Source: a virus. From it: a stretch of DNA of 64,000 nucleotides. The stretch spans positions 1-64,000 of the IMG/VR virus record IMGVR_UViG_3300030102_005172. The stretch is one strand, 5' to 3'. The translations under genes were made by a program, and so were the position numbers. This document shows positions 37,466-54,663 of this stretch, in pieces; the stretch's first letter is position 1; the number at the start of each line of letters is the position of its first letter. Under the pieces are notes generated by a model. The model was not told the DNA's origin, searched no databases, and saw only the letters and a list, made by a program, of their open reading frames with translations.

Positions 37466-37517
37466 AGGAAATTGTTAAATTTTCTTTTTGACACACGAAT
37501 CGTTCCCAAAATGTAGG

Positions 37518-38141
37518 TTACACAAGGGTGTCATAATAATCGTTTTGTTTTATTTGTTTATCTATATCTTTATGGTGGAACAATGATAGTTCCTCAACCC
37601 AAGGTAGATTTGAAATTGTATCATAACCATCGAGTTTCTCGTGTACCTTATTTATCCAACGAATGGATTCGGATTTCTTATATACTCTCCATTGAGGGTC
37701 TGGCCAATTTACTCTACCTTTATCGTCAACATTCCAATTCCATTTTTTAATGTACTCATCTGTTAATCCATCTACCAAATTTACTCGTGGTACGAGGATT
37801 ACATCTACTGAATTCATTTCAAGGATTTGTGGAAGGTTTTCAATTAATTCCTTATTTGGAATCTCATCTGCGTCAATCTGAAAAATGTAATCACCATTAC
37901 ACAAATCAGTCAACTTGTTTTTCCAATCAGCGAAGTGTCCATCAAACTCCCCACTATGCCAAGAGTAGGTTGGATTTACTGATTTAGCTCTTAAATATTC
38001 TTCTACCTTTTCATCACCATTCTTAGAATCATAAAGTATTACGATTTCATCTTCTGGTCTAATATTATCTAAAAGGTATGGGATTAGTTTTTGAATTTCT
38101 GTGAATTCATTACAAACTGTAACTGCGTAACTTATTTTCAT
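37518..38141 (-). CDS. GT2 glycosyltransferase
   Basis: IFQIDADE, WPD.Q.R, W..KVHE. Confidence 0.85.
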   Translation of the reverse strand: MKISYAVTVCNEFTEIQKLIPYLLDNIRPEDEIVILYDSKNGDEKVEEYLRAKSVNPTYSWHSGEFDGHFADWKNKLTDLCNGDYIFQIDADEIPNKELIENLPQILEMNSVDVILVPRVNLVDGLTDEYIKKWNWNVDDKGRVNWPDPQWRVYKKSESIRWINKVHEKLDGYDTISNLPWVEELSLFHHKDIDKQIKQNDYYDTLV

Positions 38142-38150
38142 AATTTAATT

Positions 38151-38666
38151 TTATAGTCCTACGGGTGGAGTATCTTGTGGTGTTTCCAAATCCGTATCGT
38201 CCTTTCGAACTTGTTCTTGTTGTCTTCTTGTTGACCTCGGTGGTATCATATCATAAACACCAAAATCATAATTATATACTGTTACTTGACCTACATTTTT
38301 TTCAATCAGAGTTCTGTATCCGTTTTGTAAGTCTTTGTTTTTTAACTTTGATGTATAAAATTGTTTAGAGTTAACTTCTACTCTTAATTTACTTAAATCT
38401 AATTTTCTAATCTTAGGAGTATTACTTGTTACCTCACTCAAATCTTCTGCAAGTTTAATAAACTTATCTGGTGCACAATCTTTCAAATCTAAACAATGGA
38501 AATAAAGTTTAAAATTAGGTTGTAGAATAAAAACAAACATATCTCTCTGAGTATTGTCTCTTTTCTTGTATCTAATCTTAGCAACCATACCTCTCTCTAA
38601 TTTAGATTTAGAGAGTCTTGTAGGGTCGGTCATATTACTTCTATGTCTACTTGTATAGTCTGGCAT
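38151..38666 (-). CDS. hypothetical protein
   Basis: ORF track. Confidence 0.65.
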   Translation of the reverse strand: MPDYTSRHRSNMTDPTRLSKSKLERGMVAKIRYKKRDNTQRDMFVFILQPNFKLYFHCLDLKDCAPDKFIKLAEDLSEVTSNTPKIRKLDLSKLRVEVNSKQFYTSKLKNKDLQNGYRTLIEKNVGQVTVYNYDFGVYDMIPPRSTRRQQEQVRKDDTDLETPQDTPPVGL

Positions 38667-39946
38667 TATTTCTTCTTAAGTTTAGGTAATTTTAATCCTA
38701 CTTGTTTTGGTCCTTCACCAACTTTATATTGTGTTATTAATTCACCTAATTTTTCTGTCATTTTTTCTTGGGTAAAATTAGTCTTCACAAAATGTCTGTT
38801 TTTTCTTGACAATCCAAGTGCCTTTTTGTAACTATTATATACAGATTTCATAACACTCGAAGCTTGATTGTGGTCAATCTTAAACCACCTTGAACCTTGG
38901 ATAATCCACTTGTTTGTACTTGACGGGTGAACTTCTTCTAAGTTACCACCTACTAAGAAGTTGTATTCTTTATGTAGGAAGTCCATATGACCACTCCATG
39001 CTGATGCGATGATTGGTTTACCACTAACACATGCTTCAAGTAATGGTCTACCAAACCCTTCACCATGGGTAAATGAAACATGGGCTTTAACTTGTGGATG
39101 GTTGTATATAGAATTCATTTCTTCATTTGTAAAATCACCATCTAATATATAAATATTAGGGAAGTTACTACCACCAAGTCTTCTTTTACATCTTTCAATT
39201 ACTTTTTTAATTCTATGAACACTTGAAATTGAAGGTTGTCCATTATTACATTTCAAAATCAATGCAGGTTTAGCTTTACCTCTAAATGATACACCTTTCC
39301 ATGTTTTTAAGAATACTTTTACTAAAGAGTATATATTTTTTCTATCTTGTCCATCTGCACCATGTAACCAATGACCAACAAACAGAAAACAAAATTGTTC
39401 AGGTATTTTTTGAAATACTTTTTTTACATTATCATCAATAGGTTTTTTATGGTCATATACTTTGGAATCATATCCTTCAAACAAAACCTCAACAGGTTTT
39501 TCTATTTTTAGTTCACCTATTTTTTCTTTGGTCTGGTCATTTAATTTATCATAGACTGCACTTAATGTTGCAGCTGAGTGTTTTGATGAAACTAAGTTTA
39601 AGTCCATTCTATTACACCCTTCAATAAAATCTGCAGATGCGTCTGATGTTTCGATAACTGCGGATACACCTATATTAAAATGTCCGACAGGTTGGAACTC
39701 ACTTGGAATGGTTACCATAATCCAAATATCAGGTTTTGTTTCTAATTTAGGGATAAGTCTACTAATCAAGTCTTTATCATCAGGTGTCAATGCATTCATG
39801 GGAGTTGTACCCCATCTTTGACCTAAGAGTTTAATATCCCACTCATCACCTTTTAAATCAATTAAAGACCTTACGAAATCCCTTGCTCTTGCTCCGTAAC
39901 CACTTCTTGTAGCTATCGGACAACTAATTACACATAATTTTTTCAT
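38666..39946 (-). CDS. GT4 glycosyltransferase
   Basis: TRSGYG, DRKN, EGFGRPLLEA..SGKPII. Confidence 0.88.
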   Translation of the reverse strand: MKKLCVISCPIATRSGYGARARDFVRSLIDLKGDEWDIKLLGQRWGTTPMNALTPDDKDLISRLIPKLETKPDIWIMVTIPSEFQPVGHFNIGVSAVIETSDASADFIEGCNRMDLNLVSSKHSAATLSAVYDKLNDQTKEKIGELKIEKPVEVLFEGYDSKVYDHKKPIDDNVKKVFQKIPEQFCFLFVGHWLHGADGQDRKNIYSLVKVFLKTWKGVSFRGKAKPALILKCNNGQPSISSVHRIKKVIERCKRRLGGSNFPNIYILDGDFTNEEMNSIYNHPQVKAHVSFTHGEGFGRPLLEACVSGKPIIASAWSGHMDFLHKEYNFLVGGNLEEVHPSSTNKWIIQGSRWFKIDHNQASSVMKSVYNSYKKALGLSRKNRHFVKTNFTQEKMTEKLGELITQYKVGEGPKQVGLKLPKLKKK

Positions 39947-41346
39947 ACTTTGTAAATATCAAATCTTTGTCTTGGTTTCCAATTTTCAAAACAACCATCG
40001 ATTGCTTCAATAAACTTTTCACCCATTGTTTCTGACGCCATATCACCGGCACCTATAATAAATTCATGTCCTTTCAAACCTGCGGATTCACATCCATCTC
40101 TTCCCTTTTCATACCAAGTACCAATAGCGTTACCAATATCTTTGTATGAACATCTATCATCAAAAATATAAGGAGTTACTGGTGACCCTTGTAGTGAACG
40201 ATTTGATGGCCATATTGGTTCAACCCACTCACCCCAAGTTAAGTCTTTTATCATTGGATTATCTTTGTCATGTAGTGACCCAATATCAATGTAATCATCT
40301 GCATTTAAAAATTTACCATTTCTTTTAAATCCACATTGGTCTTGTAGTCCACCTGTAACATTTATTACGACAGGAGTTCCTGCTCTTAGTGCTTCACAAG
40401 AACCTAATCCAAACCCTTCATTAGATGCGACATTTAAAACTACATCACAAGAGTTATAGAATAAATTTAATCCTTCGGTACTTAACTTATCTTCACTAAA
40501 CTTAACATGACCATGTTTTACATTCATTCTAACGACTTCTGGAATATCTGTACCATTTTCGTCAATAGGATTTGTGTGCATGAATAAACACATTTTTTTA
40601 TCAGGATATTTTTCTGCAAACTTTTCAAATCCAAGAACAACATCACCTGGTACTTTTCTACGAATGTTTCTATTACACCAACCTACTACAAAGTCATAAT
40701 CATTTAATCCTTTTTCTCCTTTGTACTTAATCAATGCACTATCTGTAAGTTCTAATGGTTTGAATAAGTTAGTTACCCCATGTGGAATATACTTGAAAGA
40801 CCAATCTTCTCTGTCTTCACCATACCAATCCATTACTCTTTTATTGATACCATAAGTTTGTTTGGATATACCTAATAGTAAATCACAACTTGCGTAAAAT
40901 GGTGCATTCCAATGAGGGTCAGGTAATGAGTCCCAAATATTGTAATACATTATAGGACATATTTGTCTAACTTCATTTTCCATATCATACAACCATCCCC
41001 AAAATCTTGGGTCTGTAAAGTGTAAGATTGCGTCTGGCTTTTCTACATTAAGTAGTTCTCTTAAGACTTCAGGATTACCATAACTTGTATGACAATATAT
41101 TTTTACAGATGCGTCTTCTACGCCTGTTAACTTTCTTACATCATCATCTAATATAAATTGTTTACCATGTTCAGGGTGTTTTAGTGCTGCACCTAACTGA
41201 ACCCAATCGTATTTATGAACAGTAGACAATACAATCTCTTTTGATTGTGTTGCAATTCCACTATGTAATCTTAAGTCGTCTGAAAGTAAAAGTATCTTGG
41301 GTTTTTTTGTCCCAGCCTTTTTTAATTTTGGTAGTTCTATACTCAT
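39943..41346 (-). CDS. GT4 glycosyltransferase
   Basis: IPHG, NRNIRRK, NEGFGL...EA..AGTP. Confidence 0.88.
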   Translation of the reverse strand: MSIELPKLKKAGTKKPKILLLSDDLRLHSGIATQSKEIVLSTVHKYDWVQLGAALKHPEHGKQFILDDDVRKLTGVEDASVKIYCHTSYGNPEVLRELLNVEKPDAILHFTDPRFWGWLYDMENEVRQICPIMYYNIWDSLPDPHWNAPFYASCDLLLGISKQTYGINKRVMDWYGEDREDWSFKYIPHGVTNLFKPLELTDSALIKYKGEKGLNDYDFVVGWCNRNIRRKVPGDVVLGFEKFAEKYPDKKMCLFMHTNPIDENGTDIPEVVRMNVKHGHVKFSEDKLSTEGLNLFYNSCDVVLNVASNEGFGLGSCEALRAGTPVVINVTGGLQDQCGFKRNGKFLNADDYIDIGSLHDKDNPMIKDLTWGEWVEPIWPSNRSLQGSPVTPYIFDDRCSYKDIGNAIGTWYEKGRDGCESAGLKGHEFIIGAGDMASETMGEKFIEAIDGCFENWKPRQRFDIYKV

Positions 41347-41395
41347 TCTATAACTTCTTCTTTTTATTTAACTATAAATATACAAAAAATATTTA

Positions 41396-41740
41396 TTAAA
41401 TCCTATTATATTCATCAGAAATTCTAACAATATCATCTTCACCGAAATATGTGCCAGTTTGAACTTCTATGAACTCAACAACCTCATCAGTTTCGTTCCA
41501 TGCTCTATGCTTTGCACCTTTGGGTATTCTGATGGATTCACCATATTCTCTAAATACTTTTTCATCATCTAAAACTATTGTTAGATTTCCTTTCGTAACA
41601 ATCCAACATTCTTGTCTTAGAAGATGATATTGATACGATAATTTTTGTCCTGGATTTACTGTAATCCTTTTTACTTTTGTTGTTGGGTCATCTAATAGTA
41701 CCTCGTACTTTCCCCATGGTCTTTCATCTATTTCATTCAT
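41396..41740 (-). CDS. cupin, mannose-6-phosphate isomerase type II C-terminal-like
   Basis: RPWG.Y, LSYQYH..R.E.W, HR..N, IEVQTG.YFGEDDIVR. Confidence 0.9.
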   Translation of the reverse strand: MNEIDERPWGKYEVLLDDPTTKVKRITVNPGQKLSYQYHLLRQECWIVTKGNLTIVLDDEKVFREYGESIRIPKGAKHRAWNETDEVVEFIEVQTGTYFGEDDIVRISDEYNRI

Positions 41741-42132
41741 TGTACAAAACTTGCCTTCTTTTTCCATCTATTTAACAATCTGTTAAAGTGGTTAAATTCT
41801 TTTCTTGTTATTTCACCGAAGTAAACTATCTTGTCTGAATTATGTACAATACAATCATATTGATGAAGTGGTTGTGTTGGATGATATGGTTTGTCATAAT
41901 ACTCATCTTCCATTCCACTATATAATGTTCTTGATGTATGTGCAGGATTAAACTCAATATACTTTAGATTCATTTCTAATGCATATTTACGAACCCATTT
42001 TTCTACACCATTCTTTTTTCCTCTTGTGATAATTGTTAAATCCTCACCAAACTTTTCTTTTAATTTAAAAATGGTCTCTTTTAATTCACCTCTATTTTCG
42101 TATTTTTCATCCCCTATCAGAGCTATCTTCAT
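41737..42132 (-). CDS. SLOG/YspA-like protein
   Basis: MKIALIG...Y.N, IITRG..NGVE. Confidence 0.5.
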   Translation of the reverse strand: MKIALIGDEKYENRGELKETIFKLKEKFGEDLTIITRGKKNGVEKWVRKYALEMNLKYIEFNPAHTSRTLYSGMEDEYYDKPYHPTQPLHQYDCIVHNSDKIVYFGEITRKEFNHFNRLLNRWKKKASFVQ

Positions 42133-42616
42133 TTTTATTAAGTGTGTTTTGTACCTTTTTCCAATACCTTTTAGTTTGTTTTTTCTGTAATCCCTTCGGA
42201 CCACCATTCCAACACCTTGCGATTTCTTCATATGAACTATCTTTGTGATAATAATCTACAAAAACATAAAACATCTCAATAGACTTTTTTTCATTCCATC
42301 TGTCGTCAAGTGTATAAAATCTATCGTCTTTTTTTATGTTTAGTATTCTGTTTACTTCGTTTACCATAATGGGTCTAATCTGTAAAACTCCTGCTGCGTC
42401 TTCTCTTTTTGCAAACGCTTTTGGGTTTCCTTTTGATTCTACCCACACCATCGCCTCTATCAAATCTTCTAAATCTCTGACAATGGGTTTTATTTCATTT
42501 TTGTGTTCAATTTTTATTTGTTCAATTGGTAATCTTTCTATTTCATATAACTTTTGTTCGGGTGAGTTTACCGAAGTACACAACAACCCTATCAGCATTA
42601 TTGAAAAATTTCTCAT
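42107..42616 (-). CDS. lysozyme-like transglycosylase
   Basis: A...VES.GN..A, G.LQI, ARCWNGGP.G. Confidence 0.8.
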   Translation of the reverse strand: MRNFSIMLIGLLCTSVNSPEQKLYEIERLPIEQIKIEHKNEIKPIVRDLEDLIEAMVWVESKGNPKAFAKREDAAGVLQIRPIMVNEVNRILNIKKDDRFYTLDDRWNEKKSIEMFYVFVDYYHKDSSYEEIARCWNGGPKGLQKKQTKRYWKKVQNTLNKNEDSSDRG

Positions 42617-43563
42617 ATATTCCTTATTCGTTCAACTTTGGGACACAACTCCGATGTCTTAAAAGGACACCACTTACAATTCTTATTATTTTTACCTGCC
42701 ATCGCAGGAAAGTCCCCTTCTGAATTGTAAGAACCATCATCATTGAAAGCCACATCAATAAATTCATCAAAACTTTTTACAATCTTATTTAATGTTGGTT
42801 TTCCATGTGCTGGTACAAATTCTTGTACTCTTTGTTGAGCAAACATGGCCTCTTCCCATAGTTTCCTCTTTACTATAAAGTATCTAACTTGTATCTTTTC
42901 TATCGGATATCCGTATTGTTCTGAGAAAAACTTTTTGTATAAAACCAACTGAGCCGTTTTAGTTTTATCAGCTTTCTGCCACTTGTTCCATCCTCTTGTG
43001 GATGTTTTGATATCCCAAATCTCTATTGTATTATCTGCCAGATTCTCAAATACTAAGTCTAAGAATCCTTTCATCATAATATTTTCGTTTGATTCTGACG
43101 CTGGATAGTATATTGGTAACTCAACACCAACTAATCTCATAGTCCTTGTTGAAAAATACTTTGCTCTATTCTTTCTTAAGAAGTCCAATATCTGAAGACC
43201 ATCATCGTAGAACTCATTCATTTCATCTTTGGTGGTAAACTTAACACCATAGATTGCCATCATCTTTTTGTACTCTTTAGCCATTTCTTCTAAGAGTAAC
43301 TTTTCCAAGTCCATGTCATTTGCTTTTACTGCAGAATCATTATACATGACTTGTAACCATGCTTGAATAGTCTCGTGCATAGCAGTACCAAATACAAGAT
43401 GTATAGATGGGTCAAAGTCTTTGTGACCATCCATATATGTAAGTTTCCATTGTTTAGGACAATTTGCCCACATTGTATATTGTGAGTAAGAAACCTTTAC
43501 ATCATCTTTTCCCTCTTTATGTACGGGAAAATTAAATATATTGGATACCATTGATTTTTTCAT
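42613..43563 (-). CDS. PD-(D/E)XK (RecB/Cas4-like) exonuclease
   Basis: SYS...CP, FGTAMH, GFLDL, DIKT, QL.LY, CKWCPF...C. Confidence 0.85.
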   Translation of the reverse strand: MKKSMVSNIFNFPVHKEGKDDVKVSYSQYTMWANCPKQWKLTYMDGHKDFDPSIHLVFGTAMHETIQAWLQVMYNDSAVKANDMDLEKLLLEEMAKEYKKMMAIYGVKFTTKDEMNEFYDDGLQILDFLRKNRAKYFSTRTMRLVGVELPIYYPASESNENIMMKGFLDLVFENLADNTIEIWDIKTSTRGWNKWQKADKTKTAQLVLYKKFFSEQYGYPIEKIQVRYFIVKRKLWEEAMFAQQRVQEFVPAHGKPTLNKIVKSFDEFIDVAFNDDGSYNSEGDFPAMAGKNNKNCKWCPFKTSELCPKVERIRNI

Positions 43564-43628: not shown

Positions 43629-44039
43629 TTACTTAGCCCACTTCTTTCTTTGGACTATTTGTGCTATGATTCCGTAAACACTCATATCTTCATAGGTATC
43701 TTGAATATTTTCACCAACCTCATCTGGCTGACCTAAAACTACTAATTGTTTTAGTCTTTGGATTTTGTCATTCAGTCTAAACCATAAACCTGTTAGTGAT
43801 ATCTTTATTTCATCATCGGTTTCTAAATTAGTTCCAACTGAAATATTATCAGGTCCATAATTTCTTTGTTTTTTACAGAATGTTTCATACATTTCTTCTT
43901 GAATCTTTTTAAATTCATTTGTAGTATTTGGATACATTCTTTCACAATACTCTATTGCGGTCTCATCTACATTTCTATTCTCTACTCTCTCACCTTGCCA
44001 CTCTACTTTATTTTTTCTATCTTTAATTACTTGAGCCAT
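43629..44039 (-). CDS. DUF1599 / nucleotide-modification-associated domain 1 protein
   Basis: F.KK..NYG..NI, R.NDKI.RL, E...DT..D...YGI. Confidence 0.75.
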   Translation of the reverse strand: MAQVIKDRKNKVEWQGERVENRNVDETAIEYCERMYPNTTNEFKKIQEEMYETFCKKQRNYGPDNISVGTNLETDDEIKISLTGLWFRLNDKIQRLKQLVVLGQPDEVGENIQDTYEDMSVYGIIAQIVQRKKWAK

Positions 44040-44470
44040 TTTTTTACTTCTTTTTTATCTAAACCATATTTTAACAATATTTCTGTAATATCGTCTTTAC
44101 TTAGTATCTCAAGATAATCTCTAACTTCTCTTTGAGATACTTTGTAGTATTTTGCAAGATATTCTAATACATTAGAATTATACTTGTCATCCTTTTTACC
44201 TTTTATATACTTGTCCCAAGTTTTCTTTTTAGGTAAAAAATCAAAGTACATTTTGTAAACATCTCTTGGACTGAGTTGGCCAATAGTAAACTTTTGCAGC
44301 TCGTTTACCAACTCCAATAGTCCCATATTCATTGACAAGAATCTATTTACCATAAATGGTTCAAATGTTTTCTTATCCATAACTGAAAGACTATCCCAAG
44401 AAGTTTTATACTCCTTAAGTCCAGATAGATGTTGAAATAATGTCTTAGCCTTCTTCGTTGATGCCATCAA
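44027..44470 (-). CDS. clamp loader small subunit (gp62-like)
   Basis: PFMVNRFLS..., ..Y..LPKKK...KYIK, LAKYY.VS.RE...YL. Confidence 0.75.
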   Translation of the reverse strand: MMASTKKAKTLFQHLSGLKEYKTSWDSLSVMDKKTFEPFMVNRFLSMNMGLLELVNELQKFTIGQLSPRDVYKMYFDFLPKKKTWDKYIKGKKDDKYNSNVLEYLAKYYKVSQREVRDYLEILSKDDITEILLKYGLDKKEVKKWLK

Positions 44471-44732
44471 TCAATTCTTTTGGTGTAAATTTAGGATGAA
44501 TAGTCCCACAATTGTTACACAATACAACGGGTATAGGTAACATTGAAGCTTGACCTGTTGGTGATTGAACCGCTGGTACTTCTTTATACATTGTTGTTTG
44601 GTCAAAGAATATACCACTACATTTAGGACACTTTACAGTTTCCAATTTTGTAGGGTCAAGTTTTAGTTGAGGTTGTTGTTGTGCTTTTGGTTTACCAAAA
44701 TCAATAACTTTTCCTTTTCCTTTTTTTGCCAT
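44445..44732 (-). CDS. zinc-ribbon protein
   Basis: CPKC...CNNCG. Confidence 0.7.
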   Translation of the reverse strand: MAKKGKGKVIDFGKPKAQQQPQLKLDPTKLETVKCPKCSGIFFDQTTMYKEVPAVQSPTGQASMLPIPVVLCNNCGTIHPKFTPKELIDGINEEG

Positions 44733-44735
44733 AAT

Positions 44736-45656
44736 TTATTTCCCTAATGTCATTAAAATATTTAATATCATAGCCATCACATTGATTTCCTTGTCAACGA
44801 CCATAGAGTCTTTATATTGACCCTCGGCTATATTCAAAATTGTGTGTCCAACTTTACCACTTGCATATGAGTCTACTTCATCATAAAGTGCTCTATACAA
44901 TGGTGTAAAGTCTTTCACTTTAGAGTCTGCAATAATCTGTCTTATTGTGTTGAACTTTGATTTCATTTCACCACTATCTTGTAAAACTTTTATTACATCC
45001 TCTGTATAGTTTGCCTGAATTGTAGATGTAGTATCTATTTTCAACTCACCTTTGACAACTTGTCTTTGTGCTGAGTTCAATACTCTACGAATGTCAGGAT
45101 AACCACTATTGACCAATATTGCCAAGTCTTCCTTTTCAAACTTAACTGATTCCTCGTTTAATATATCAAACAATCTTTTTGCCACTTCTTTTTTAGAAGG
45201 TGGTGTTATTGCGAATGTTTGACAACGAGATTGAATCGGGTCAATAATTTTTTCTACATAGTTACAAGTTAAAATGAACCTTGTAGATTTACTGAAAGTT
45301 TCCATTAGATTACGAAGTGCTGCTTGAGCATTCGGTGTCAAATAGTCTGCTTCATCTAATATAATTACTTTCCACTTTCTGAATCCCATTGATGATGCGA
45401 ATCCACGAATCTTGTCACGAACTGCGTCAACAGAGTTTTCATCAGAAGCGTTGATATACATCAAATCACAATCAATCTGATTAGTGATTATTTTTGCGAG
45501 GGTAGTCTTACCTGTACCTGCGACTCCATAGAGTAACAAGTGTGGTACATCCTCATTCTCAATGTATATCTTTACTTTGTCTAAGATATGTTGATTACCA
45601 ACATACCCATCTAATGTATCGGGTCTATATTTTTCGACCCATAGTGAATTACTCAT
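44736..45656 (-). CDS. clamp loader AAA+ subunit (RFC/gp44-like)
   Basis: WVEKYRP, G.AGTGKT, NASD, LDEAD, SRC. Confidence 0.95.
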   Translation of the reverse strand: MSNSLWVEKYRPDTLDGYVGNQHILDKVKIYIENEDVPHLLLYGVAGTGKTTLAKIITNQIDCDLMYINASDENSVDAVRDKIRGFASSMGFRKWKVIILDEADYLTPNAQAALRNLMETFSKSTRFILTCNYVEKIIDPIQSRCQTFAITPPSKKEVAKRLFDILNEESVKFEKEDLAILVNSGYPDIRRVLNSAQRQVVKGELKIDTTSTIQANYTEDVIKVLQDSGEMKSKFNTIRQIIADSKVKDFTPLYRALYDEVDSYASGKVGHTILNIAEGQYKDSMVVDKEINVMAMILNILMTLGK

Positions 45657-46843
45657 CGACCTACTTCTTTTAAATATGTTTCTTTTGCTTTGTCCCAACT
45701 CATTCCAATAATATCCATGTAATACAATGTATCTGGTTTCAATCTGTTTTCATCATGTAACTTAGTGTATCTTCTTATTGCTTTCTTCTTCCACCATCTG
45801 ATTGTATAATCATCACCTTCTTCAAACTTCTTCTTCATTTTAAGTTGACTTTCATCAATCTCATTTCTAAGAAACTCATTTCCGTTGTCATACATCATTG
45901 CGAAGTAAACACCTCTTTTGAATCCATGTTGATATTGTGTACTTTTGATTCCCAACTCTTTGAAAATCATAGACAATATTCTTTGTTTGATACCAGATAC
46001 AGGTCCTTGGATACCTTCTTTTTGAGTTGTAACTCTTTTATATTCTTCGGATTTATTTTCTTTAATCCATTGGTGCCAGATATCGTAAAATTCATTATCA
46101 GGTTTAGTAGAAACTTTACCTGTTGATTCACCTAATGTTTTGAAGTGTGGGATTCCATTATATTGAGAATGGATTCCATAAAGAGAAGTTGTTCCAACTG
46201 CGATTAGAGTTTGTCCATACTTTTCTTTCCACAAGTCTCTGAATGTCGGTGAGGTTGTTAGTGCTGATACAAGTTTACCACCTAAGAAATTATATCCTAA
46301 TGGTTGTGTTGCGATGATAGATGTTCCAATCGTAGTATGATTTAACTTACCATCTTTAAACTTGTTTTCTTTTTGCCAACCTATGTACTTATCACGAACA
46401 CCTAAAGATGTTACATCAGAACCAAGAGATATTACACCAAGAACTTTACCACTCTTTCGGTCTTTAGCAAATGCTTTTATATTACGACCAGGATTAGCAG
46501 TAAACTCCATTGATGAAATACACTTACGAATATCAGTCCACTTCGCAGTGCCTGATGAATCTGTAATTAACTCTACATAAGGTTCTAACTCTTCAATCTC
46601 TTTGATTGTTAGTTCCTTATTGTAAATGTCAGTAGGAGTCCAAATCATATCAAAAGACTTTGCAAGACTTGGTTTTCTTGCCATAGACTTTGGTAAATCT
46701 GAATTCCATTCTTGCCATTTTTTGTAAAGAGTTTGTTCCTCAACAGGCATGGTAGATAAATACTCCATGTTGTCAATGAATCGTTTTCTCTCTACATCGT
46801 AGTCAAAAACAGGTTTCGCTGGTTCTGTATCCCAAAATTGCAT
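45653..46843 (-). CDS. DUF4338 (Druantia DruA-like) protein
   Basis: PGRN, RDKYIGW, QPLGYNFLGGKL, TTSLYG..SQYN, LGES.G. Confidence 0.75.
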   Translation of the reverse strand: MQFWDTEPAKPVFDYDVERKRFIDNMEYLSTMPVEEQTLYKKWQEWNSDLPKSMARKPSLAKSFDMIWTPTDIYNKELTIKEIEELEPYVELITDSSGTAKWTDIRKCISSMEFTANPGRNIKAFAKDRKSGKVLGVISLGSDVTSLGVRDKYIGWQKENKFKDGKLNHTTIGTSIIATQPLGYNFLGGKLVSALTTSPTFRDLWKEKYGQTLIAVGTTSLYGIHSQYNGIPHFKTLGESTGKVSTKPDNEFYDIWHQWIKENKSEEYKRVTTQKEGIQGPVSGIKQRILSMIFKELGIKSTQYQHGFKRGVYFAMMYDNGNEFLRNEIDESQLKMKKKFEEGDDYTIRWWKKKAIRRYTKLHDENRLKPDTLYYMDIIGMSWDKAKETYLKEVGR

Positions 46844-47538
46844 TACTTAATCTCTACTAAATAATAGTTAGACTTAAATCCATCATTCTCAAATGAGACA
46901 TGAGCTAATCCATTTGGTGAAATCTTCAATGAAGATGATTTTGCACCTTTGTTAGCATTAAGGATTTCTTTTAAGTATTTTGCTGAGAATGAGATTGGTT
47001 CTACATCACCATCACATTCACACTCTACATTAATAGAAATTCTGTTAGAGTTAATCTTTGAGTAACCTAAGATTACTTCACCTTTGTTACTTTTACAACT
47101 AAATGTAAATGTATCTGAATCAGATAATGCACCCTTTGATTTTACAAACTTGTTTACAAAATCATTGTCCATCTTGATTGTAGATGTAAATTCAGGTAAT
47201 TGTTTTAAATCTGGCACAACAGGTATAACAGATAAATCAGCCAACATATAGTTTACTGAAGTTCCCTTATCTGAAAATACAAGTGATGCGTCACCTTCTT
47301 TTACATTGATATCAGAATCTAATACAGTTAGTAATCCTTTTAATTGAGAAGTAGTATAAACACCAAACTCACCACTTGGGAAGTCTTTGTTATCACTACT
47401 TACATTTCCTAATAGGGTCTTATCGTCAGAGATAAATTTGACAGATAACCCTTCTTCTGTTGAATCAATTTTAACTGATTCGACCTCACCACCTAAGTTA
47501 TATCTAGTGATGAAACCTTCAAACGAGCTTTTTTTCAT
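46843..47538 (-). CDS. sliding clamp (gp45/PCNA-like)
   Basis: 231 aa, FG.Y....L, F...YLKEIL..N; lies between PolB and clamp loader. Confidence 0.8.
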   Translation of the reverse strand: MKKSSFEGFITRYNLGGEVESVKIDSTEEGLSVKFISDDKTLLGNVSSDNKDFPSGEFGVYTTSQLKGLLTVLDSDINVKEGDASLVFSDKGTSVNYMLADLSVIPVVPDLKQLPEFTSTIKMDNDFVNKFVKSKGALSDSDTFTFSCKSNKGEVILGYSKINSNRISINVECECDGDVEPISFSAKYLKEILNANKGAKSSSLKISPNGLAHVSFENDGFKSNYYLVEIK

Positions 47539-47580
47539 AATTTACTATTGTTTATTTTAATTAATATACGAAATTTATTT

Positions 47581-50097
47581 TTAAAATCCAAAAAATTCTG
47601 AAGCTTTATTTAGATTTGGGTTTGGTTTCTCCCAATCCATAGCTTTATAGAAGTCATCAAGTTTATTTTCTAACTCCTTTTCCCAAATTTTATCGTAGTC
47701 AATATATTGTTCTACGAGTTTTAAAATCTGAGGTGGGTCATTGTGTCCTTTTAGACCTGTTGCGTCTAATCCAAGAGGATTCTTTTTCAAATATACCCAC
47801 TTAATCTTATCACCATCTTTCATAGGTTCGTACTTATATGGTACTTTATAGAAAGCAAGTAATTGATTATATGTTATTGCCGCCTTGACATGAGCAGGTG
47901 ACCCCTTTTGGAATTCACCCAATACTTGAGTCTTTGTTGTATACTTACTCATACCTTTGACCGCTGAGTTCTTTGCGATGTCAATGAATGGTCTATCTTC
48001 CATACCTTTTTTGTAATCAAGAATCTTAGTATCAATTTCTTTTTTATCAACTGACCTTAGAATATCTAACAAAACAGTTTTCATAACTTCTTTGAAGTAA
48101 GTTGGGAATGAACTTCTTTTAACATCCAATCCTTTTACATCTAACTTGTCACAATCAACTTCGTTATCATTGATAATCCATTGTGCATATCTTTTCTTTG
48201 AAACCCAAAATCCACCTTTTGCAATTGTTTCTTGTTTAATATCAAATTTATGTGTATCGATGTTAAATAACTTTTTTGCCATCGTATCGTAAACCTTGTT
48301 GATATGAGTTTCTACTTCTTTTGCTGCGGATAGAATCGCAGGAATCATTTCTTCATCCGAATCCTCATTGAGTTCAGGATTACGAGATTTTACTAACGGA
48401 GCGGCCTGATAAAAAACAGAATCAGTATCGGTATAAACATTGTAGTCATCTTCTTTTCCTATTACTTTTGAATAATATTGATTTGCAATCAACTCTGTTG
48501 TTTTAATTACAGTTTGACCTGTAATCGTAGTTGCTTCAGCATTATCAACATCATAAAATCTGAATGATGGTAATCCTAAAACTCCGTATAACGAGTTTAA
48601 CATAATCTTTTGTACCAATTGTCTTTTACCATAAAACTTGTATTGTTCATCATTACCTTCTTTACCATACTTTTTCATCAAGTTTTTGTATTCAACTCTT
48701 TTGTCGAACCAAACACTTAATATTTCAGGTATAACTCCAACTTTATCAGTTCTATATAAAACACCATTTGCGGCAACAGAGTATTTGTTTTTTTCAATAA
48801 ACTTTAGAAACTTTTCTTTAGGTAAAGGTGGAAATTCATTACCATCATCATCTATAATTGAATAAGTTTCAAGGTTACCTTTCATATGTTGTTCTGCAGA
48901 GTAACCTTTTAGTTTACCAATCTTAGTCTCAGGTGATATATTGATACTCATAATGATAGATGGATACAGAGAAGTCAAGTCCAAGTCATAAACCCATTTG
49001 TAAAGACCAGGTTTAGGTTCTTTTACATAAGCGCCTGTAAATTTACCTTCACCATCAGAACCATCTTCATTTCTTGGTTTTCTTCTTGGTTTGTTGGGTG
49101 CTACCCTACCACTTCTTCTAAGGAATGTTAATATTGCGCCTTCTAACCATTTTGATGAGAACAAAAAGTCTTCATAGAATACATGACCTGTATGACATAT
49201 TGCCCTTGCCAAGTCAATAAACTGAAGTTTTTTATCCAAGTCCACAACTAATTCAACATCAACTAAGTTATACTCAATAAACTTCTCTATATCATCTCTA
49301 AATAATTGGTCCAAGTTACCTTCATATTCAATCTTACCCCTACCTAACTCAATACTTGCTACTGTATCTAATCGGTAATTAGGTAACTCTGTAAAGTTGT
49401 AACACTTGTAAAGTGCTAGGTAATCTAATGCCGATACTCCTGCAATAATATATCTGTTTCTGTATTTGTTATATGTTACTTTACCAATCGGTGATAATTG
49501 ATTTGCATATTGTTGACCAAATAATAGTTTATATCTATTGTAAAGATATGTAACATCAAAGAAATCAATATTCCAACCTGTTACAATAGTTGGATTTATT
49601 TCTCTCCATTTAGACATAAATGCTGATAGTAGACCTTCTTCAGTATCAAATGACTCTACTTTAGCTCCTTTGATTATCTTATCAATCTTTTCACCTTTGT
49701 TAACTACATAGACAAAATAGTCATTTGTAATTGAGTCGTGTGCTGCGATTGAAGTAATTGCGTTACTTGCAGTTTCAATATCAGGCAATCCACTATTCAT
49801 TTCAACCTCAATATCGAATGTTAGAATTGTATGTCCTGTTGATAGTTCATCCGAATCACCATACTCATCAATTAAGAAACGAGTCATTTCATTTACATCT
49901 GATTCATATAATTGTAAATCATCATCTGCTTTCCAAAAGTTTAGTTTCTTAAGTCTTTCACCATGAATGGATTGGTGTGCTCCGTTTCCATCTCTTACAT
50001 AAGCATATCTACGATACTTGGATGTAAAGTAACCTTTTTGGTCATCCCAACAATGGATGATAGACTTTTCTTTTTCGAAGAATACATTTTGATACAT
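47581..50097 (-). CDS. family B DNA polymerase
   Basis: FDIE, GWNIDFFD, YN..D, DLTSLYPS, K..LNSLYG, YTDTDS, KKRY. Confidence 0.97.
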   Translation of the reverse strand: MYQNVFFEKEKSIIHCWDDQKGYFTSKYRRYAYVRDGNGAHQSIHGERLKKLNFWKADDDLQLYESDVNEMTRFLIDEYGDSDELSTGHTILTFDIEVEMNSGLPDIETASNAITSIAAHDSITNDYFVYVVNKGEKIDKIIKGAKVESFDTEEGLLSAFMSKWREINPTIVTGWNIDFFDVTYLYNRYKLLFGQQYANQLSPIGKVTYNKYRNRYIIAGVSALDYLALYKCYNFTELPNYRLDTVASIELGRGKIEYEGNLDQLFRDDIEKFIEYNLVDVELVVDLDKKLQFIDLARAICHTGHVFYEDFLFSSKWLEGAILTFLRRSGRVAPNKPRRKPRNEDGSDGEGKFTGAYVKEPKPGLYKWVYDLDLTSLYPSIIMSINISPETKIGKLKGYSAEQHMKGNLETYSIIDDDGNEFPPLPKEKFLKFIEKNKYSVAANGVLYRTDKVGVIPEILSVWFDKRVEYKNLMKKYGKEGNDEQYKFYGKRQLVQKIMLNSLYGVLGLPSFRFYDVDNAEATTITGQTVIKTTELIANQYYSKVIGKEDDYNVYTDTDSVFYQAAPLVKSRNPELNEDSDEEMIPAILSAAKEVETHINKVYDTMAKKLFNIDTHKFDIKQETIAKGGFWVSKKRYAQWIINDNEVDCDKLDVKGLDVKRSSFPTYFKEVMKTVLLDILRSVDKKEIDTKILDYKKGMEDRPFIDIAKNSAVKGMSKYTTKTQVLGEFQKGSPAHVKAAITYNQLLAFYKVPYKYEPMKDGDKIKWVYLKKNPLGLDATGLKGHNDPPQILKLVEQYIDYDKIWEKELENKLDDFYKAMDWEKPNPNLNKASEFFGF

Positions 50098-50125
50098 AAG
50101 TTAAATATACAAAAATTTTATGACA

Positions 50126-50914
50126 TTACCAAAAACTAACTGCGTTTTCTGGTGAATATGTTTCATGTTTTTCAATAGGTGGTAAAAACTCCTCGGGGTC
50201 TTTTGGATACGGACTCGTTTTATGTTTTAACATCTTACTAAGTTTTCGTTTCTCAGATTTATTTTGACCTAAGATTTGAATGTACCTATGTTTAGGCGCC
50301 TCTTTCTTTCGCCAAAAACAAGATTTGTTTTGTTTACCTATTTCTTTTTTTAAGTGTTCTACATTATGTGAACCCCATTTAGAAAATACAGTCCTTGAAT
50401 GAATCCAATCATAAGGACTATCACTAAGTGATACTGAATAGTTTGGCATTAGTTGTATATCACGACAATCTTGATATAACCAATTAGTTGCTTGGTAAAT
50501 TCCACCGAGGTGTAATTGTTCAGGGTCTGCGTAACTCAACAACATCTTAATTTTTGGTGCATTATCTCTCATCCATTTAAAAGACTGACCCATTGCGTAT
50601 GATTCTATATTTGAACCATATCCATCATGGATAAACAATCTTGTCAACTCCAAACACTCGTCTTTATCTAAACCATCAATTACAGACTTAATCGCTGAAC
50701 GACCTACGGGATATCCGTATACCAAGCAACCAATTAGTTTTTCACTACCAAAGAATCCATCATCACCATTGTAATATACACCGAGTGCATATCTACACAT
50801 AGTCCACGCATGAGAGTAGTGATACTTTACAATCATTTGTTTAGCTACACTTTTATTGATTTCTCTAATAGAAACCTTTGATGTGTCTACATAATGTTTA
50901 TTAGGTTCTTTCAA
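50126..50914 (-). CDS. Mom-family (GNAT-fold) DNA-modification protein, paralog 1
   Basis: I.K.HYS, LIG...YG.P, ELTRL, N.ES, SYAD....H.G.IYQATNW.Y, PKHRY. Confidence 0.8.
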   Translation of the reverse strand: MKEPNKHYVDTSKVSIREINKSVAKQMIVKYHYSHAWTMCRYALGVYYNGDDGFFGSEKLIGCLVYGYPVGRSAIKSVIDGLDKDECLELTRLFIHDGYGSNIESYAMGQSFKWMRDNAPKIKMLLSYADPEQLHLGGIYQATNWLYQDCRDIQLMPNYSVSLSDSPYDWIHSRTVFSKWGSHNVEHLKKEIGKQNKSCFWRKKEAPKHRYIQILGQNKSEKRKLSKMLKHKTSPYPKDPEEFLPPIEKHETYSPENAVSFW

Positions 50915-51653
50915 TTGGTTCTAATTTTTTTATTTCTTCTTCAAATAACTCACCCTGTTTAGGATATGGTAGTGAAGGATATTTCAAACTCTTTAATATA
51001 CGACTTTTTTTTGACTTATCCAAAATATAAATGTATCTATGTTTTCTTGGTTCTTTTTTAATCCAAAAAGTTTTACCAATTACCTTTTGTATTTTCGTTG
51101 GGTTGTTAGTTCCATAATATGGAAATATTGTTCTACCATGTTGCCATTCACCATTTTCCTCAAACTTAAATAACCAACTATCGTTTGGTCTTATTCTGTT
51201 TCCTTGATATATCCAATTTGTAGATTGATAAACAGTTCCTAAGTGACCTGCTTTTGGGTCTGAGTATGATATCAGTCCTATAATGTGTCTTGCGTGTTTT
51301 CTTAACCACTTAAATGTTTGTCCTACAAACCAACTTTCAACATTACATCCATATCCATCAAATACAAATAATCTCGTTAGTTCTAATACTTGTTTTCTGT
51401 CTAATAACTCTGATATTGATTGACCAGAGTGTCTTCCGATTGGGTCACCATATGTTGCAACACCGATTAATTTATCTGTTGATGAAAAGAAAGAGTGTGA
51501 ATCATCCTCAACATACAATCCCAAACAGTAACTAACTTTAGTCCATATACCACTATAATGGTTCTTTATGATAATGTCTTTTGCTACTGATTTTGAGATA
51601 GGTCTTACGGATAACTTTGAAATATCTGTATACTCTTTCCCTTTAATTTTCAT
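50901..51653 (-). CDS. Mom-family (GNAT-fold) DNA-modification protein, paralog 2
   Basis: IKNHYS, ELTRL, NVES, SYSD..GH.GTVYQSTNWIY, RKHRY. Confidence 0.8.
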   Translation of the reverse strand: MKIKGKEYTDISKLSVRPISKSVAKDIIIKNHYSGIWTKVSYCLGLYVEDDSHSFFSSTDKLIGVATYGDPIGRHSGQSISELLDRKQVLELTRLFVFDGYGCNVESWFVGQTFKWLRKHARHIIGLISYSDPKAGHLGTVYQSTNWIYQGNRIRPNDSWLFKFEENGEWQHGRTIFPYYGTNNPTKIQKVIGKTFWIKKEPRKHRYIYILDKSKKSRILKSLKYPSLPYPKQGELFEEEIKKLEPIERT

Positions 51654-51853
51654 TGATAATCGTTAAATTCACCGAACAACAAATGTTTCCAAGTTTCACC
51701 TCTAACTATTTTTCTTATGTTAGCAGGTGATACTCCGTTGTTTCTTGCCAATACTCTAATGTTACGATGTCCAACAGACCACAACTTACGAATCGACCTT
51801 ACTTGTCTTTCTGTTAATTTATGTTGTGGATGTAATTCACCTCTTAATGCCAT
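51650..51853 (-). CDS. stand-alone HTH (HNH-associated C-terminal DNA-binding domain type)
   Basis: RGE.HP..KLTE.QV..IR ... LAR..GVS...I..I.RG.TWKH; promoter at 51868-51899. Confidence 0.7.
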   Translation of the reverse strand: MALRGELHPQHKLTERQVRSIRKLWSVGHRNIRVLARNNGVSPANIRKIVRGETWKHLLFGEFNDYQ

Positions 51854-51886
51854 TCTAAACCTTTTCACTAATATACGAAATTTTTA

Positions 51887-52444
51887 TTAATTTTCCAAAA
51901 ATAAATCACCAACTTCTAAACCAGATGGTACTTTATCCCATAAATTTATTGCGATTGCTCGTCTTGTTCCACGAGTAACCTTAGTAACTCTATGAGGATG
52001 GGCGCCTGCAGGAAATATAACCAACCTATTATACTTTGGTTCTAATCTTTCAGGTTCACCATCTTGTCCATGTGGATAGATTTCAAGGTAACCACCATCA
52101 ATATCATTTTCCCATGGATAAAAAACAGTACCTATTACAGGTGTAACTATTTCTTTTGTTTGATTATACCAATACTCATCTTTATCAAAGTGAAATGGTA
52201 GTTCATCTCTTTCCTCGGTTGATGAGTAAACACCTGTCCAATATTCAAACCCTGAAACACTTACAGATGGATATGGGCAGTTTTCACCCCAAATATATTG
52301 TATCAACCTTTTTTTAATTGTATTTGCAGGTGAGTTCCACCAACCATCCCACCACATATAACCTTTAGTATCAAAGAATGTCGTGTCATTCTTTAGGTCA
52401 TTTAATAGTTCTTGGTCTTTTATGAAATCATCTATTACAATCAT
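51887..52444 (-). CDS. 2OG-Fe(II) oxygenase (prolyl-4-hydroxylase-like)
   Basis: H.DKDE, GG.L, PKYNRLVIF...H.V, R.A.AIN.W. Confidence 0.85.
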   Translation of the reverse strand: MIVIDDFIKDQELLNDLKNDTTFFDTKGYMWWDGWWNSPANTIKKRLIQYIWGENCPYPSVSVSGFEYWTGVYSSTEERDELPFHFDKDEYWYNQTKEIVTPVIGTVFYPWENDIDGGYLEIYPHGQDGEPERLEPKYNRLVIFPAGAHPHRVTKVTRGTRRAIAINLWDKVPSGLEVGDLFLEN

Positions 52445-53532
52445 AATTCTTCTACTTTCTTAAGTGCCGATGCGATTACTTGGTGCATATCATAATATTT
52501 GTATTCTGCTAATCTACCACCAAATATGACTTTGTCTTGACTATCGGCTAATTTTTTATACTTTTTATATATCTCATTATTAGTTTTATCATTTACAGGA
52601 TAATATGGTTCTACTCCCCTTTCATAAGGTTGTGGGTATTCCCAACTAACATAAGTTCCTTGTTGATTTTGATTATCAAAATGTTTGTGCTCTATAACTC
52701 TTGTATATGGTGTTTCTGAGTCCGTATAGTTCATTAATGCACACCCTTGATAATTATCTTTTGATTTATACATCTTACTCATCCAATGTAAAGATTTGTA
52801 TTCCAAATCACCATACTTGTAGTCAAAATACAAATCAATCGGACCTGTATAAATTACTTTATCACCTAACCCATCCCAAAAGTCTTTTTTGTCAAAATAA
52901 TCTGTATTTGTAAATACTTCAATACCTTGTAACAATCTTTCAAATATCTGAGTGTATCCACCAATTGGTATTCCTTGATACTTGTCATTAAAATAGTTGT
53001 TATTGTAAGTAAATCTAACAGGCAATCTTTTGATAATTGACTTTGGTAACAACTTAGCTGGCTTCATCCATTGTTTTTGAGTATAACCTTTTATTAACTT
53101 TTCGTAAATGTCTTTACCGACAAGAGCTTGTGCTTGTTCTTCTAAGTTAGTAGGATTACCTTCAAACTTCTGTGATTCAATTCTTTCTTTTGCACCTTCG
53201 GGAGTTCTAACACCCCACATTTTATTAAATGTATACATATTGAAAGGTAATGGATATATCTCACCTTTATAGTTTGCAACTATATTAAGTTGAAACTGAT
53301 GAAAGTCTACAAACTGATTTATCCAATGCCAAATCTTTTCATTATTTGTATGAAATATGTGTGGTCCATATTTGTGTACATGAATACCTTCTATTTCTTC
53401 AGTATAACAATTACCACCAATGTGGTCTCGTTTTTCAATAACACAAACCTTTTTACCTTTTTCTTTGAGTTCGTATGCACATACTGCGCCAAAGAAACCT
53501 GAACCAACTATTACATAATCATACTTACTCAT
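52441..53532 (-). CDS. glf: UDP-galactopyranose mutase
   Basis: GSGFFG, HIGGNCY, HKYGPHIFHT, YFNDKYQGIP, GRLAEYKYYDMHQ. Confidence 0.95.
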   Translation of the reverse strand: MSKYDYVIVGSGFFGAVCAYELKEKGKKVCVIEKRDHIGGNCYTEEIEGIHVHKYGPHIFHTNNEKIWHWINQFVDFHQFQLNIVANYKGEIYPLPFNMYTFNKMWGVRTPEGAKERIESQKFEGNPTNLEEQAQALVGKDIYEKLIKGYTQKQWMKPAKLLPKSIIKRLPVRFTYNNNYFNDKYQGIPIGGYTQIFERLLQGIEVFTNTDYFDKKDFWDGLGDKVIYTGPIDLYFDYKYGDLEYKSLHWMSKMYKSKDNYQGCALMNYTDSETPYTRVIEHKHFDNQNQQGTYVSWEYPQPYERGVEPYYPVNDKTNNEIYKKYKKLADSQDKVIFGGRLAEYKYYDMHQVIASALKKVEEL

Positions 53533-54663
53533 TTATAGTCTATTATTATTTAGTGCCTCTGAATGTAATTCTTTTGGATAAGAACTTGTGTCGTAGTACG
53601 CATCATCTTCAATTAAAAACTGAAATCTTGGGAATGGGTTTTTTCTTTTTACATCTATTAACATTCGTGTACATTGTAACATTTTATGATAATGTTTTCT
53701 GTCTTTATGTATTTCTGCTAATCTAAGATAAGACTCATTTCTAGCTGAACAGAATTCTACACTTTTATAGTACCATTCTATTGCTTTATCTATTTCACCA
53801 ATTAGTTTATATGCTCCTGCGATTCCAAAACAACACCAATAACAAAACTCATCGTTTTTATTGTCAATATAACCTTGTGTTTTGTAAAAGGGATTTATTT
53901 GATAAATGTATTGTTTAAAGTAAAATATACATCTTCTAACATATTCCTTTCGGTGGTCTTCACCAAATGGAAACTCATCTCTAAGAGTATCATAGTAAGA
54001 CTTTGCTATGTAAAATAAATGGTATCTATCCTCTAATACTTTTTTATTAGGTATTGTATCGAGTTCTAAGTTTAGTGCGTCTTTTAAAAACTTCATAGGT
54101 GACATCCATGTTTGACCATCATTAGTTAAAATATGTCTGAACTTACTATCTAATGATTCTCTTTGAAATCCTTCACCAATATCATCTCTATCTAAATAGA
54201 TTGTTTCGTGTGCTTTTTCAGGATAAAATCTCCAAGGTTCTTTTGCGTTCCAAATCCAAGTTCTGAAATATTTTATACCAGGTCCTTGACATGGTACATT
54301 CCAACTTTGTACTGAGGTGTCATTAAATACTGACCAATCGAAGTCATCATCAACTTGTAATACTTCATCTGCGTCAACTCTTAGAATCCAATCACATCCA
54401 TGGTCTGCCTCTAACGCAGTTCTTACACAATGGTCTCGATTTATACCATGTCCCTTCCACCAATCTAATTGATATAAGAAACCAGGTATTCCCTTTTCGT
54501 TAAAAAAGTTTTTAATTATGTCTTGAGTTCCATCAGTTGAACCATTGTCTTGAATAACCCAATAATCAATGTATGGATATACACTTTCCAACATTCTCTC
54601 AATAACATGAGATTCATTATTAACCATTGTGTTAAAACAAAACTTTGCAGTTGTGTTTTTCAT
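53533..54663 (-). CDS. GT2 glycosyltransferase with TPR-like C-terminus
   Basis: V.NE...I.R, DNGSTDGT, VDADE, AHE; helical TPR-like tail. Confidence 0.85.
   Translation of the reverse strand: MKNTTAKFCFNTMVNNESHVIERMLESVYPYIDYWVIQDNGSTDGTQDIIKNFFNEKGIPGFLYQLDWWKGHGINRDHCVRTALEADHGCDWILRVDADEVLQVDDDFDWSVFNDTSVQSWNVPCQGPGIKYFRTWIWNAKEPWRFYPEKAHETIYLDRDDIGEGFQRESLDSKFRHILTNDGQTWMSPMKFLKDALNLELDTIPNKKVLEDRYHLFYIAKSYYDTLRDEFPFGEDHRKEYVRRCIFYFKQYIYQINPFYKTQGYIDNKNDEFCYWCCFGIAGAYKLIGEIDKAIEWYYKSVEFCSARNESYLRLAEIHKDRKHYHKMLQCTRMLIDVKRKNPFPRFQFLIEDDAYYDTSSYPKELHSEALNNNRL

Follow-up and report, generated by a model that had tools for sequence, protein, structure and literature searches.

Our analysis of the first 64 kb (positions 1 to 64,000, hereafter the window) of IMGVR_UViG_3300030102_005172, a 118 kb viral record from IMG/VR estimated to be 66% complete, identified on the minus strand, which carries nearly all genes of the window, a T4-like block of replication genes interleaved with two members of the Mom family of DNA modification enzymes, here called MomA and MomB, and with one member of the DruA (DUF4338) family. 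On balance we favour the interpretation that the replisome block of a T4-like marine phage lineage has acquired a Mom cassette and a DruA-family GNAT protein by insertion, and that these most likely serve self-protection by DNA base modification. One insertion would consist of a small helix-turn-helix (HTH) gene and two anciently duplicated Mom genes placed in front of the gene for the family B DNA polymerase (PolB), and the other of the DruA-family gene placed between the genes for the sliding clamp and the clamp loader. MomA and MomB would work in the manner of Mom from bacteriophage Mu, from which we infer the donor and the substrate: the aminoacyl group of a host charged tRNA (glycine in Mu) would be transferred to N6 of adenine in double-stranded DNA, yielding N6-carbamoylmethyl-adenine or a related adduct. 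The DruA-like protein would be a second, Mom-shaped acyltransferase, probably also acting on nucleic acid. Since the genes sit among replication genes, the enzymes would presumably be made while the DNA is being copied, and not late as in Mu.

Family calls for the ten open reading frames (ORFs) of the block were made with Pfam and PHROG profile scans. In the order of the minus strand the genes are:

51650..51868, minus strand: HTH protein, 72 aa (phrog_517 "HTH DNA binding protein", E 3.4e-5)
50901..51653, minus strand: MomA, Mom-family GNAT, 250 aa (PF25680, 153.3 bits, E 8.9e-45; phrog_1384, E 8.9e-53)
50126..50914, minus strand: MomB, Mom-family GNAT, 262 aa (PF25680, 162.6 bits, E 1.3e-47)
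47581..50097, minus strand: PolB, family B DNA polymerase of the T4 gp43 type, 838 aa (phrog_262, E 1e-191; PF00136, PF03104)
46843..47538, minus strand: sliding clamp, gp45-like, 231 aa (phrog_223 "DNA polymerase processivity factor", E 3.3e-9)
45653..46843, minus strand: DruA-like (DUF4338) protein, 396 aa (PF14236, 66.3 bits against a cut-off of 27, E 3.3e-18)
44736..45698, minus strand: clamp-loader large subunit, gp44-like AAA+ protein (phrog_168, E 6.7e-83; PF00004, PF21328 Gp44_lid)
44445..44732, minus strand: Zn-ribbon protein, 95 aa (PF13453, 19.8 bits, under the cut-off)
44027..44470, minus strand: clamp-loader small subunit, gp62-like (PF16790, 32.5 bits, E 1.4e-7; phrog_225, E 3.3e-19)
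43629..44039, minus strand: DUF1599-like helical protein, 136 aa (PF07659, 24.1 bits against a cut-off of 25; phrog_1485, E 5.6e-14)

Both Mom matches exceed the curated PF25680 cut-off of 27.1 bits, and both proteins were also recovered by the genome-level search. The clamp was identified with PHROG only, no Pfam family matching this ORF at the cut-off, and the HTH assignment is a weakly supported one, with 15.8 bits for the Pfam family HTH_28, under its cut-off of 25. According to the coordinates, neighbouring genes either overlap (by 4, 14, 1, 46, 26 and 13 nt) or are separated by short gaps (28, 42 and 3 nt). The initial annotation had predicted these ten genes in this order, with overlapping or near-abutting junctions, and all of them are present on the minus strand; the span of 43629-51653 that it assigned to them accommodates the block except for the HTH gene, which extends past its end. 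Its designation of the virus as a "jumbo" phage is not borne out by the near-complete relatives, which measure 168–178 kb, with one of 214 kb.

MomA and MomB share 48% identity over 254 columns (E 2e-73), their genes overlap by 14 nt, and the sole real sequence match of either protein in the PDB is Mu Mom (8bv8; E 8e-11 for MomA and 6e-10 for MomB). PMC13219725 describes Mu Mom as an enzyme that moves glycine from Gly-tRNA(Gly) onto N6 of adenine in double-stranded DNA, with H58, Y59, R111, S124, D149, R151 and Y159 as putative active-site residues; activity was abolished or nearly so in the variants R111A, S124A and R151A, greatly reduced in D149A, and drastically reduced in H58A, Y59A and Y159A. 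In our 15-row alignment, composed of Mu Mom (NC_000929) and 14 phage sequences, H58, Y59, R111, S124, D149 and Y159 are invariant, both paralogs included. The ratio of nonsynonymous to synonymous substitution rates (dN/dS), taken from close pairs only, the distant relatives being saturated (dS >1.4 or not computable), is 0.02–0.06 for MomA and 0.08–0.09 for MomB, as compared to 0.03–0.04 for PolB. MomA and MomB are under purifying selection. The initial annotation was right in recognizing two clear Mom paralogs, although one of the shared motifs that it quoted, "SY.D..H.G", is mis-spaced, with four rather than two residues between D and H.

We regard a MomA-MomB heterodimer as the preferable arrangement over two independent enzymes, in view of the dimeric nature of Mu Mom, the conservation of the pair as a unit, and a regular asymmetry between the two proteins, seen at the position of R151 and in the C-terminal tail (both discussed below). 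PMC13219725 reports that Mu Mom forms a tight dimer and loses nearly all activity when mutated to a monomer.

The arrangement of the locus is well conserved among related viruses, which form a large clade without cultured members. A scan with the DruA-like protein retrieved 73 viral loci at 56–100% identity, and a scan with the Mom alignment retrieved 80; the following counts are restricted to loci with sufficient flanking sequence, hence their varying denominators. The clamp gene lies directly upstream of DruA in 53 of 62 loci, and gp44 directly downstream of it in 59 of 71; 25 of 30 loci have the Mom pair upstream of DruA, and 21 of 24 have a Mom gene within approximately 9 kb. The two Mom genes are in tandem in 72 of the 73 loci that can be evaluated, and the HTH gene adjoins MomA in 70/78 loci whose upstream flank is long enough. 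Of the 33 loci retrieved with Mom that offer 6.5 kb on each side, 29 contain DruA, and both families occur in 7/8 searched records with an estimated completeness of at least 87%. In five loci (L058, L130, L131, L134 and L138) the HTH-MomA-MomB trio has relocated as a unit; in the last four of these it lies downstream of gp62, approximately 6 kb from the clamp and DruA. In L075, L144 and L148 DruA comes immediately after MomB, the order in L075 being HTH, MomB, DruA, PolB. The complete 195 kb record G006, which contains locus L152, has DruA approximately 20 kb from the Mom pair, and the loci L062, L063 and L065–L070 carry a DruA-like gene without the replisome neighbours seen in the window. Rearrangements of this kind leave the Mom trio and DruA linked, and the linkage to replication genes that was to be checked in relatives holds.

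The replisome block without these genes is known from a cultured phage. The closest one according to PolB is Microcystis phage Mel-JY01 (PP395634; 48% identity), which exhibits the order PolB, clamp, gp44, a small Zn-ribbon ORF, gp62, a DUF1599-like ORF and a PD-(D/E)XK nuclease, with 30–54% identity to the window across the block (clamp 37%, Zn-ribbon 36%, DUF1599 54%). In contrast to the window, it lacks the HTH-Mom-Mom cassette in front of PolB, its clamp and gp44 genes have no other gene between them, and we found no match to PF25680 or PF14236 in its whole 190 kb record. The presence of the same backbone without Mom and DruA identifies HTH-MomA-MomB and DruA as insertions. It also places the Zn-ribbon and DUF1599 genes in the replisome backbone, independent of the presence of Mom or DruA; the proposal in the initial annotation that DUF1599 is a member of the modification module is not supported. 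In Mel-JY01 the DUF1599-like gene is immediately followed by one for S-adenosylmethionine synthase (14590-15792 of locus L092), which has no counterpart among the window genes scanned.

The DUF1599 assignment itself is based on a profile match that covers positions 18–59 of 61 at the score listed above; many close homologs had been labelled PF07659 beforehand. The predicted structure is a helical bundle (pLDDT 79), whose top chain in the structural comparison is 2p06_B (Z 7.6, 87 of 88 residues), the next ones reaching 7.2, values to be read with the caution that Z below about 13 is common for helical models. We take 2p06 to belong to the all-alpha NTP pyrophosphatase (MazG-like) superfamily, whose fold we considered for DUF1599; the match lies within the noise expected of helical proteins. 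Foldseek gave no match for this model at E <=0.001, the protein atlas returned only unnamed viral clusters at up to 0.83, which is chance level, and the DUF1599 profile yielded nothing meaningful when compared with PDB sequences.

The DruA-like protein exceeds the threshold of PF14236 and matches DruA1 of PADLOC (E 7.1e-22, positions 109–371 of 407). Its dN/dS with respect to close relatives is 0.02–0.07. The AlphaFold2 model, built with 51 diverse homologs (pLDDT 93.3), predicts a GNAT core at approximately residues 81–326, a helical N-terminal part and C-terminal helices. An exhaustive comparison of the model with 48,161 solved chains identified Mu Mom as the best match (8bv8_B: Z 10.3, rmsd 3.5 Å, 164 of 202 residues aligned), followed by 49 chains that all have acyltransferase-type folds with Z <=8.8; 17 chains reach Z of at least 8. 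Foldseek searches of the PDB with the same model returned acetyltransferases only, with weak E-values, and a sequence search of the PDB found nothing up to E 1. DUF4338 has also been termed a GNAT domain in PMC10853773. The question raised in the initial annotation, whether DUF4338 has a Mom/GNAT fold, can be answered: the fold is that of GNAT, and the nearest solved structure is Mu Mom. Longer DruA-family homologs carry N-terminal ParB_N (P0126, P0138), UDG superfamily (P0148) or DUF3102 (P0137) domains, which points to DNA; several other homologs of 550–740 aa have N-terminal parts without a Pfam match.

The initial annotation considered the DUF4338 protein to be a modifier rather than a defence gene. 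The MZB domain PF09369 (formerly DUF1998), which we assume to be the marker of the Druantia helicase DruE, has no match in the 118 kb record; given the incompleteness of the record and the fact that DruB, DruC and DruD were not searched, it is a reasonable reading of this result that the locus is not a Druantia system. Together with the Mom-like fold, this makes the role of a modifier reasonable; what speaks against it is that no link to Mom was detected at the level of sequence profiles (see below). Beyond fragments from phages, the best matches of the model of the DruA-like protein in BFVD were uncharacterised proteins of giant viruses, from Faunusvirus (E 1.5e-18), Yasminevirus (E 3.2e-15) and Dasosvirus (E 9.4e-9), which indicates that the DruA family reaches viruses of eukaryotes.

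The C-termini of several proteins encoded in the block show a likeness. MomB has a clade-specific C-terminal tail, and all 12 aligned orthologs end with the dipeptide -FW (F261 and W262), while the preceding 20 residues are variable; this ending occurs in no MomA, which terminates differently. In the closest cultured homolog of MomB, from Polaribacter phage P12002L, the 23-residue tail is unmatched (the query was covered at 15–239). The C-terminus of PolB (...ASEFFGF) is also kept, with FFGF, FFSF or FFAF in 19 of 20 distinct orthologs and FFSFN in one. Only three of the 144 ORFs of the 118 kb record have two F or W residues among the last three: PolB, MomB and one hydrophobic ORF. In some relatives (L007, L012, L030, L032–L035 and L074) the genes for PolB and the clamp are separated by that of a third Mom paralog. 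This paralog is approximately 203 aa long (8639-9253 in both L007 and L012), matches PF25680 with E 3e-34 and is 27–32% identical to MomA. It is found even in phages that are 96% identical to the window, which has a gap of 42 nt at this place, and its ending, ...KWFGF or ...QWFG, resembles the ...FFGF of PolB. L048 contains three Mom genes in tandem. The likeness of the termini suggests that aromatic tails could tether these enzymes to the clamp, an idea that is new here. A complex prediction with three copies of the clamp and residues 223–262 of MomB gave a score of 0.05 (mark 0.32), which, as no controls were folded, speaks neither for nor against such tethering.

Several observations weigh against the interpretation that we favour. 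PMC13219725 reports no detectable activity for R151A Mu Mom; at this position MomA has Lys (5/5 orthologs) and MomB a non-basic residue, E, F or G (6/6), the equivalence being probable and not certain, as the alignment of the loop is gap-free but short. The Mu dimer residue W48 aligns to Ser in both paralogs, hence the Mu dimer interface is not simply transferable. L075 has a single Mom gene, of the MomB type, in 19 kb, which means that an obligatory heterodimer is not universal. For the DruA-like protein, the lead of Mom over ordinary GNATs in the structural comparison amounts to 1.5 Z units, and hhalign of the DruA-like and Mom alignments gave a probability of only 2.3%, so that the likeness is structural only, even if distant homology is still possible given the narrow alignments. 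Moreover, the fourth core strand of the protein is followed by a conserved segment rich in glycine (Q180, P181, G183, G188, G189, K190) that resembles the CoA-binding motif of ordinary GNATs; the donor of the protein may be an acyl-CoA, and its target need not be DNA. The two families also do not always go together. G009 (the record of L141), 92% complete, has the Mom pair and no DruA match, and in L069, which belongs to a different type of phage, a DruA-like gene lies approximately 2 kb upstream of the terminase. PF25680 was found in none of the three named records searched (Pelagibacter phages and Mel-JY01), of which the Pelagibacter phages do carry DruA-like genes. These phages also have 2OG oxygenases between their clamp-loader genes; unrelated accessory genes reside in the clamp-loader clusters of marine T4-like phages too, and position is therefore weak evidence of replication coupling. 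The overall proposal made in the initial annotation is partly supported: the gene order and the Mom paralogs stand, and the role of DUF4338 as a modifier is a reasonable reading, but the membership of DUF1599 and the coupling to replication, which had been deduced from the position of the genes, are not supported.

These points give room to other explanations. MomA and MomB could be two independent homodimers that prefer different DNA sequence contexts or accept different amino acids from the tRNA, and so widen the protection against restriction, with the DruA-like protein as a third, independent modifier. Conservation of six Mu active-site residues and purifying selection in both paralogs would agree with this, as would the single Mom of L075 and the coming and going of extra copies (the third paralogs, the triple in L048), which gives the impression of a modular, additive repertoire. 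We nevertheless deem it rather improbable, as the pair with its overlapping genes is almost never split, and the regular asymmetry of the R151 position and the C-terminus is better explained by a division of labour. To a similar, low degree we consider that the DruA-like protein uses an acyl-CoA to acetylate a protein, a charged tRNA or a small molecule instead of modifying DNA, in host takeover, counter-defence or exclusion of other phages, and that its site is an accident of permissive insertion. The missing profile-level link to Mom, the small Z lead and the glycine-rich loop after strand 4 are in line with such a role, and so are the occurrence of the family in defence islands as DruA (according to the Pfam and PADLOC names), its presence in Mom-less phages and next to the terminase in a different phage type, and the filling of the same kind of gap by other accessory genes in Pelagibacter phages. 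On the other hand, the nearest solved structure is Mom and not a protein acetyltransferase, homologs are fused to the DNA-directed ParB_N and UDG domains, and the gene adjoins MomB in three rearranged relatives and shares strongly conserved synteny with DNA enzymes.

A question of a different kind is whether genuine modifiers encoded in this block have anything to do physically with the replisome. It is nearly an even matter that they work after replication, with the operon position setting merely the time of expression. Mu Mom acts post-replication, on finished double-stranded DNA, according to PMC13219725, and adjacency is evidently not required, since the trio lies approximately 6 kb from the clamp and DruA in L130, L131, L134 and L138, and DruA approximately 20 kb from the Mom pair in G006. 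The invariant -FW of MomB, the resemblance of the third paralog's ...WFG(F) to the ...FFGF of PolB, and the rarity of such endings among the 144 ORFs point the other way. They could be accommodated by a clamp-tethered hypermodification machine at the fork, in which MomA would be catalytic and MomB would provide targeting by docking its -FW on the clamp, the third paralog would do alike through ...WFGF, adenines would be modified on leaving the polymerase, and the DruA-family GNAT would add a second, chemically different mark. We find this scheme quite unlikely. If it were true, it would be the first case of clamp-coupled base hypermodification and the first function for the DruA family; if the aromatic tails are clamp-binding motifs, they may define a new class of clamp clients.

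We also searched for a tRNA-Gly private to the phage. In the window and in the whole record, ARAGORN and Rfam identified a single tRNA, tRNA-Arg(TCT) at 5522-5596; no tRNA-Gly or look-alike was found in the record, which at 66% completeness does not prove its absence. ARAGORN detected no tRNA within 10 kb of the 73 loci. The closest complete relatives have Arg, Met, Leu, Glu and Ala tRNAs only; complete relatives carry ordinary tRNA arrays, with tRNA-Gly(GCC) in 2/5. A pyrimidine hydroxymethylation route was considered and rejected, as neither a ThyA-type nor a ThyX-type gene turned up in the record.

Sigma-70-like sites (52 observed vs 47.6 expected), terminator-like sites (4 vs 3.0) and the Bacteroidota-type promoter pattern (5 vs 3.8) all occur at close to the expected numbers, and so does TATTTATA (10 vs 11.8 expected), which is absent from the minus strand between 41380 and 62214. 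No promoter or terminator scan defines the operon. Metatranscriptome contigs from three studies match parts of the HTH, MomA, MomB, PolB, clamp, DruA, gp44 and Zn-ribbon genes and bridge the HTH/MomA, MomA/MomB, clamp/DruA and gp44/Zn-ribbon junctions. This evidence from RNA libraries is weak, as carry-over of DNA is possible and a silent control stretch is lacking, and transcription is not thereby shown; segments without contig cover (e.g. 43629-44178, most of 47754-48853, and 51054-51328) are uninformative with this type of data.

Directly upstream of the HTH-Mom cassette (51887-54663) we found genes for a 2OG-Fe(II) oxygenase, a UDP-galactopyranose mutase (GLF) and a family 2 glycosyltransferase (GT2) with possible tetratricopeptide repeats; the 2OG gene, often together with GLF and GT2, is kept upstream of the cassette in relatives. 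After DUF1599 follows a PD-(D/E)XK nuclease of the Cas4/Exo5-like type with a C-terminal Cys cluster (42613-43563), which is kept in relatives and in Mel-JY01 (46% identity), with a different, longer C-terminus in one sub-clade. Between the nuclease and a sugar island are genes for a SLOG/YAcAr-like protein and an SLT-domain transglycosylase (41737-42231 and 42107-42616), with Pfam scores near or below the cut-off. The sugar island itself spans approximately 13 kb (29002-41767) and encodes three GT2 and two family 4 glycosyltransferases (GT4; one of them according to the "GT4-conflict" model), an HMGL-like aldolase-cytidylyltransferase fusion, UDP-glucose dehydrogenase, an epimerase, a mannose-6-phosphate-isomerase-like cupin and an MptE-like protein.

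Some components of this system have been noticed before. The occurrence of Mom in large phages (PMC7824862) and of DruA-like genes in cyanophages (the Phold preprint 10.1101/2025.08.05.668817) is already in print, and the network of more than 8000 Mom homologs of PMC13219725 may already include the proteins described here. Our partial literature search found no description of a replisome operon that contains tandem Mom paralogs or combines Mom with DruA, and the combination of a differentiated Mom pair, Mom with DruA, embedding in the replisome and polymerase-like tails was likewise not encountered in it. Megablast of the 8.2 kb stretch gave zero matches to cultured phages, and NCBIfam has no match for the Mom, DruA-like, HTH, Zn-ribbon or DUF1599 proteins.

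To our knowledge, Mom is the only DNA modifier known to use a charged tRNA, and it has been studied in one phage. The present loci offer a natural experiment, in which an abundant clade of marine phages has Mom duplicated, specialised and wired into the replication genes. Modifications of this kind can block restriction enzymes and bias the sequencing of environmental viral DNA. The DruA family has so far been the unexplained first gene of a defence system, and true Mom proteins in its neighbourhood provide a concrete, testable hypothesis as to its role.

Compared with Mu, the proteins described here belong to the same family, keep six of the catalytic residues and can be aligned in the region of the Mom-specific helical insertion. 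In both cases a small upstream gene overlaps the start of Mom, com in Mu, but an HTH gene here. Mu has a single Mom gene, whereas this phage has two diverged tandem paralogs, in which R151 is replaced by K or a non-basic residue and W48 by Ser; the genes are located in an early-type replication block and not at the late end of the genome. Mom-family GNATs in the large genomes of jumbo phages have been regarded as devices of self-protective DNA modification, and some are fused to restriction-endonuclease domains (PMC7824862). The genes in the window lack a nuclease fusion; they are stand-alone, duplicated and placed inside the replisome block. With DruA of type I Druantia the 396-aa protein shares the profiles of PF14236 and PADLOC DruA1, yet it is encoded by a phage and flanked by clamp and clamp-loader genes. 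Finally, the DruA-like proteins of the Pelagibacter phages Mosig and HTVC008M are members of the same family (26–32% identity) from the same T4-like aquatic type of phage, and what distinguishes the present system from them is the company of true Mom-family paralogs.

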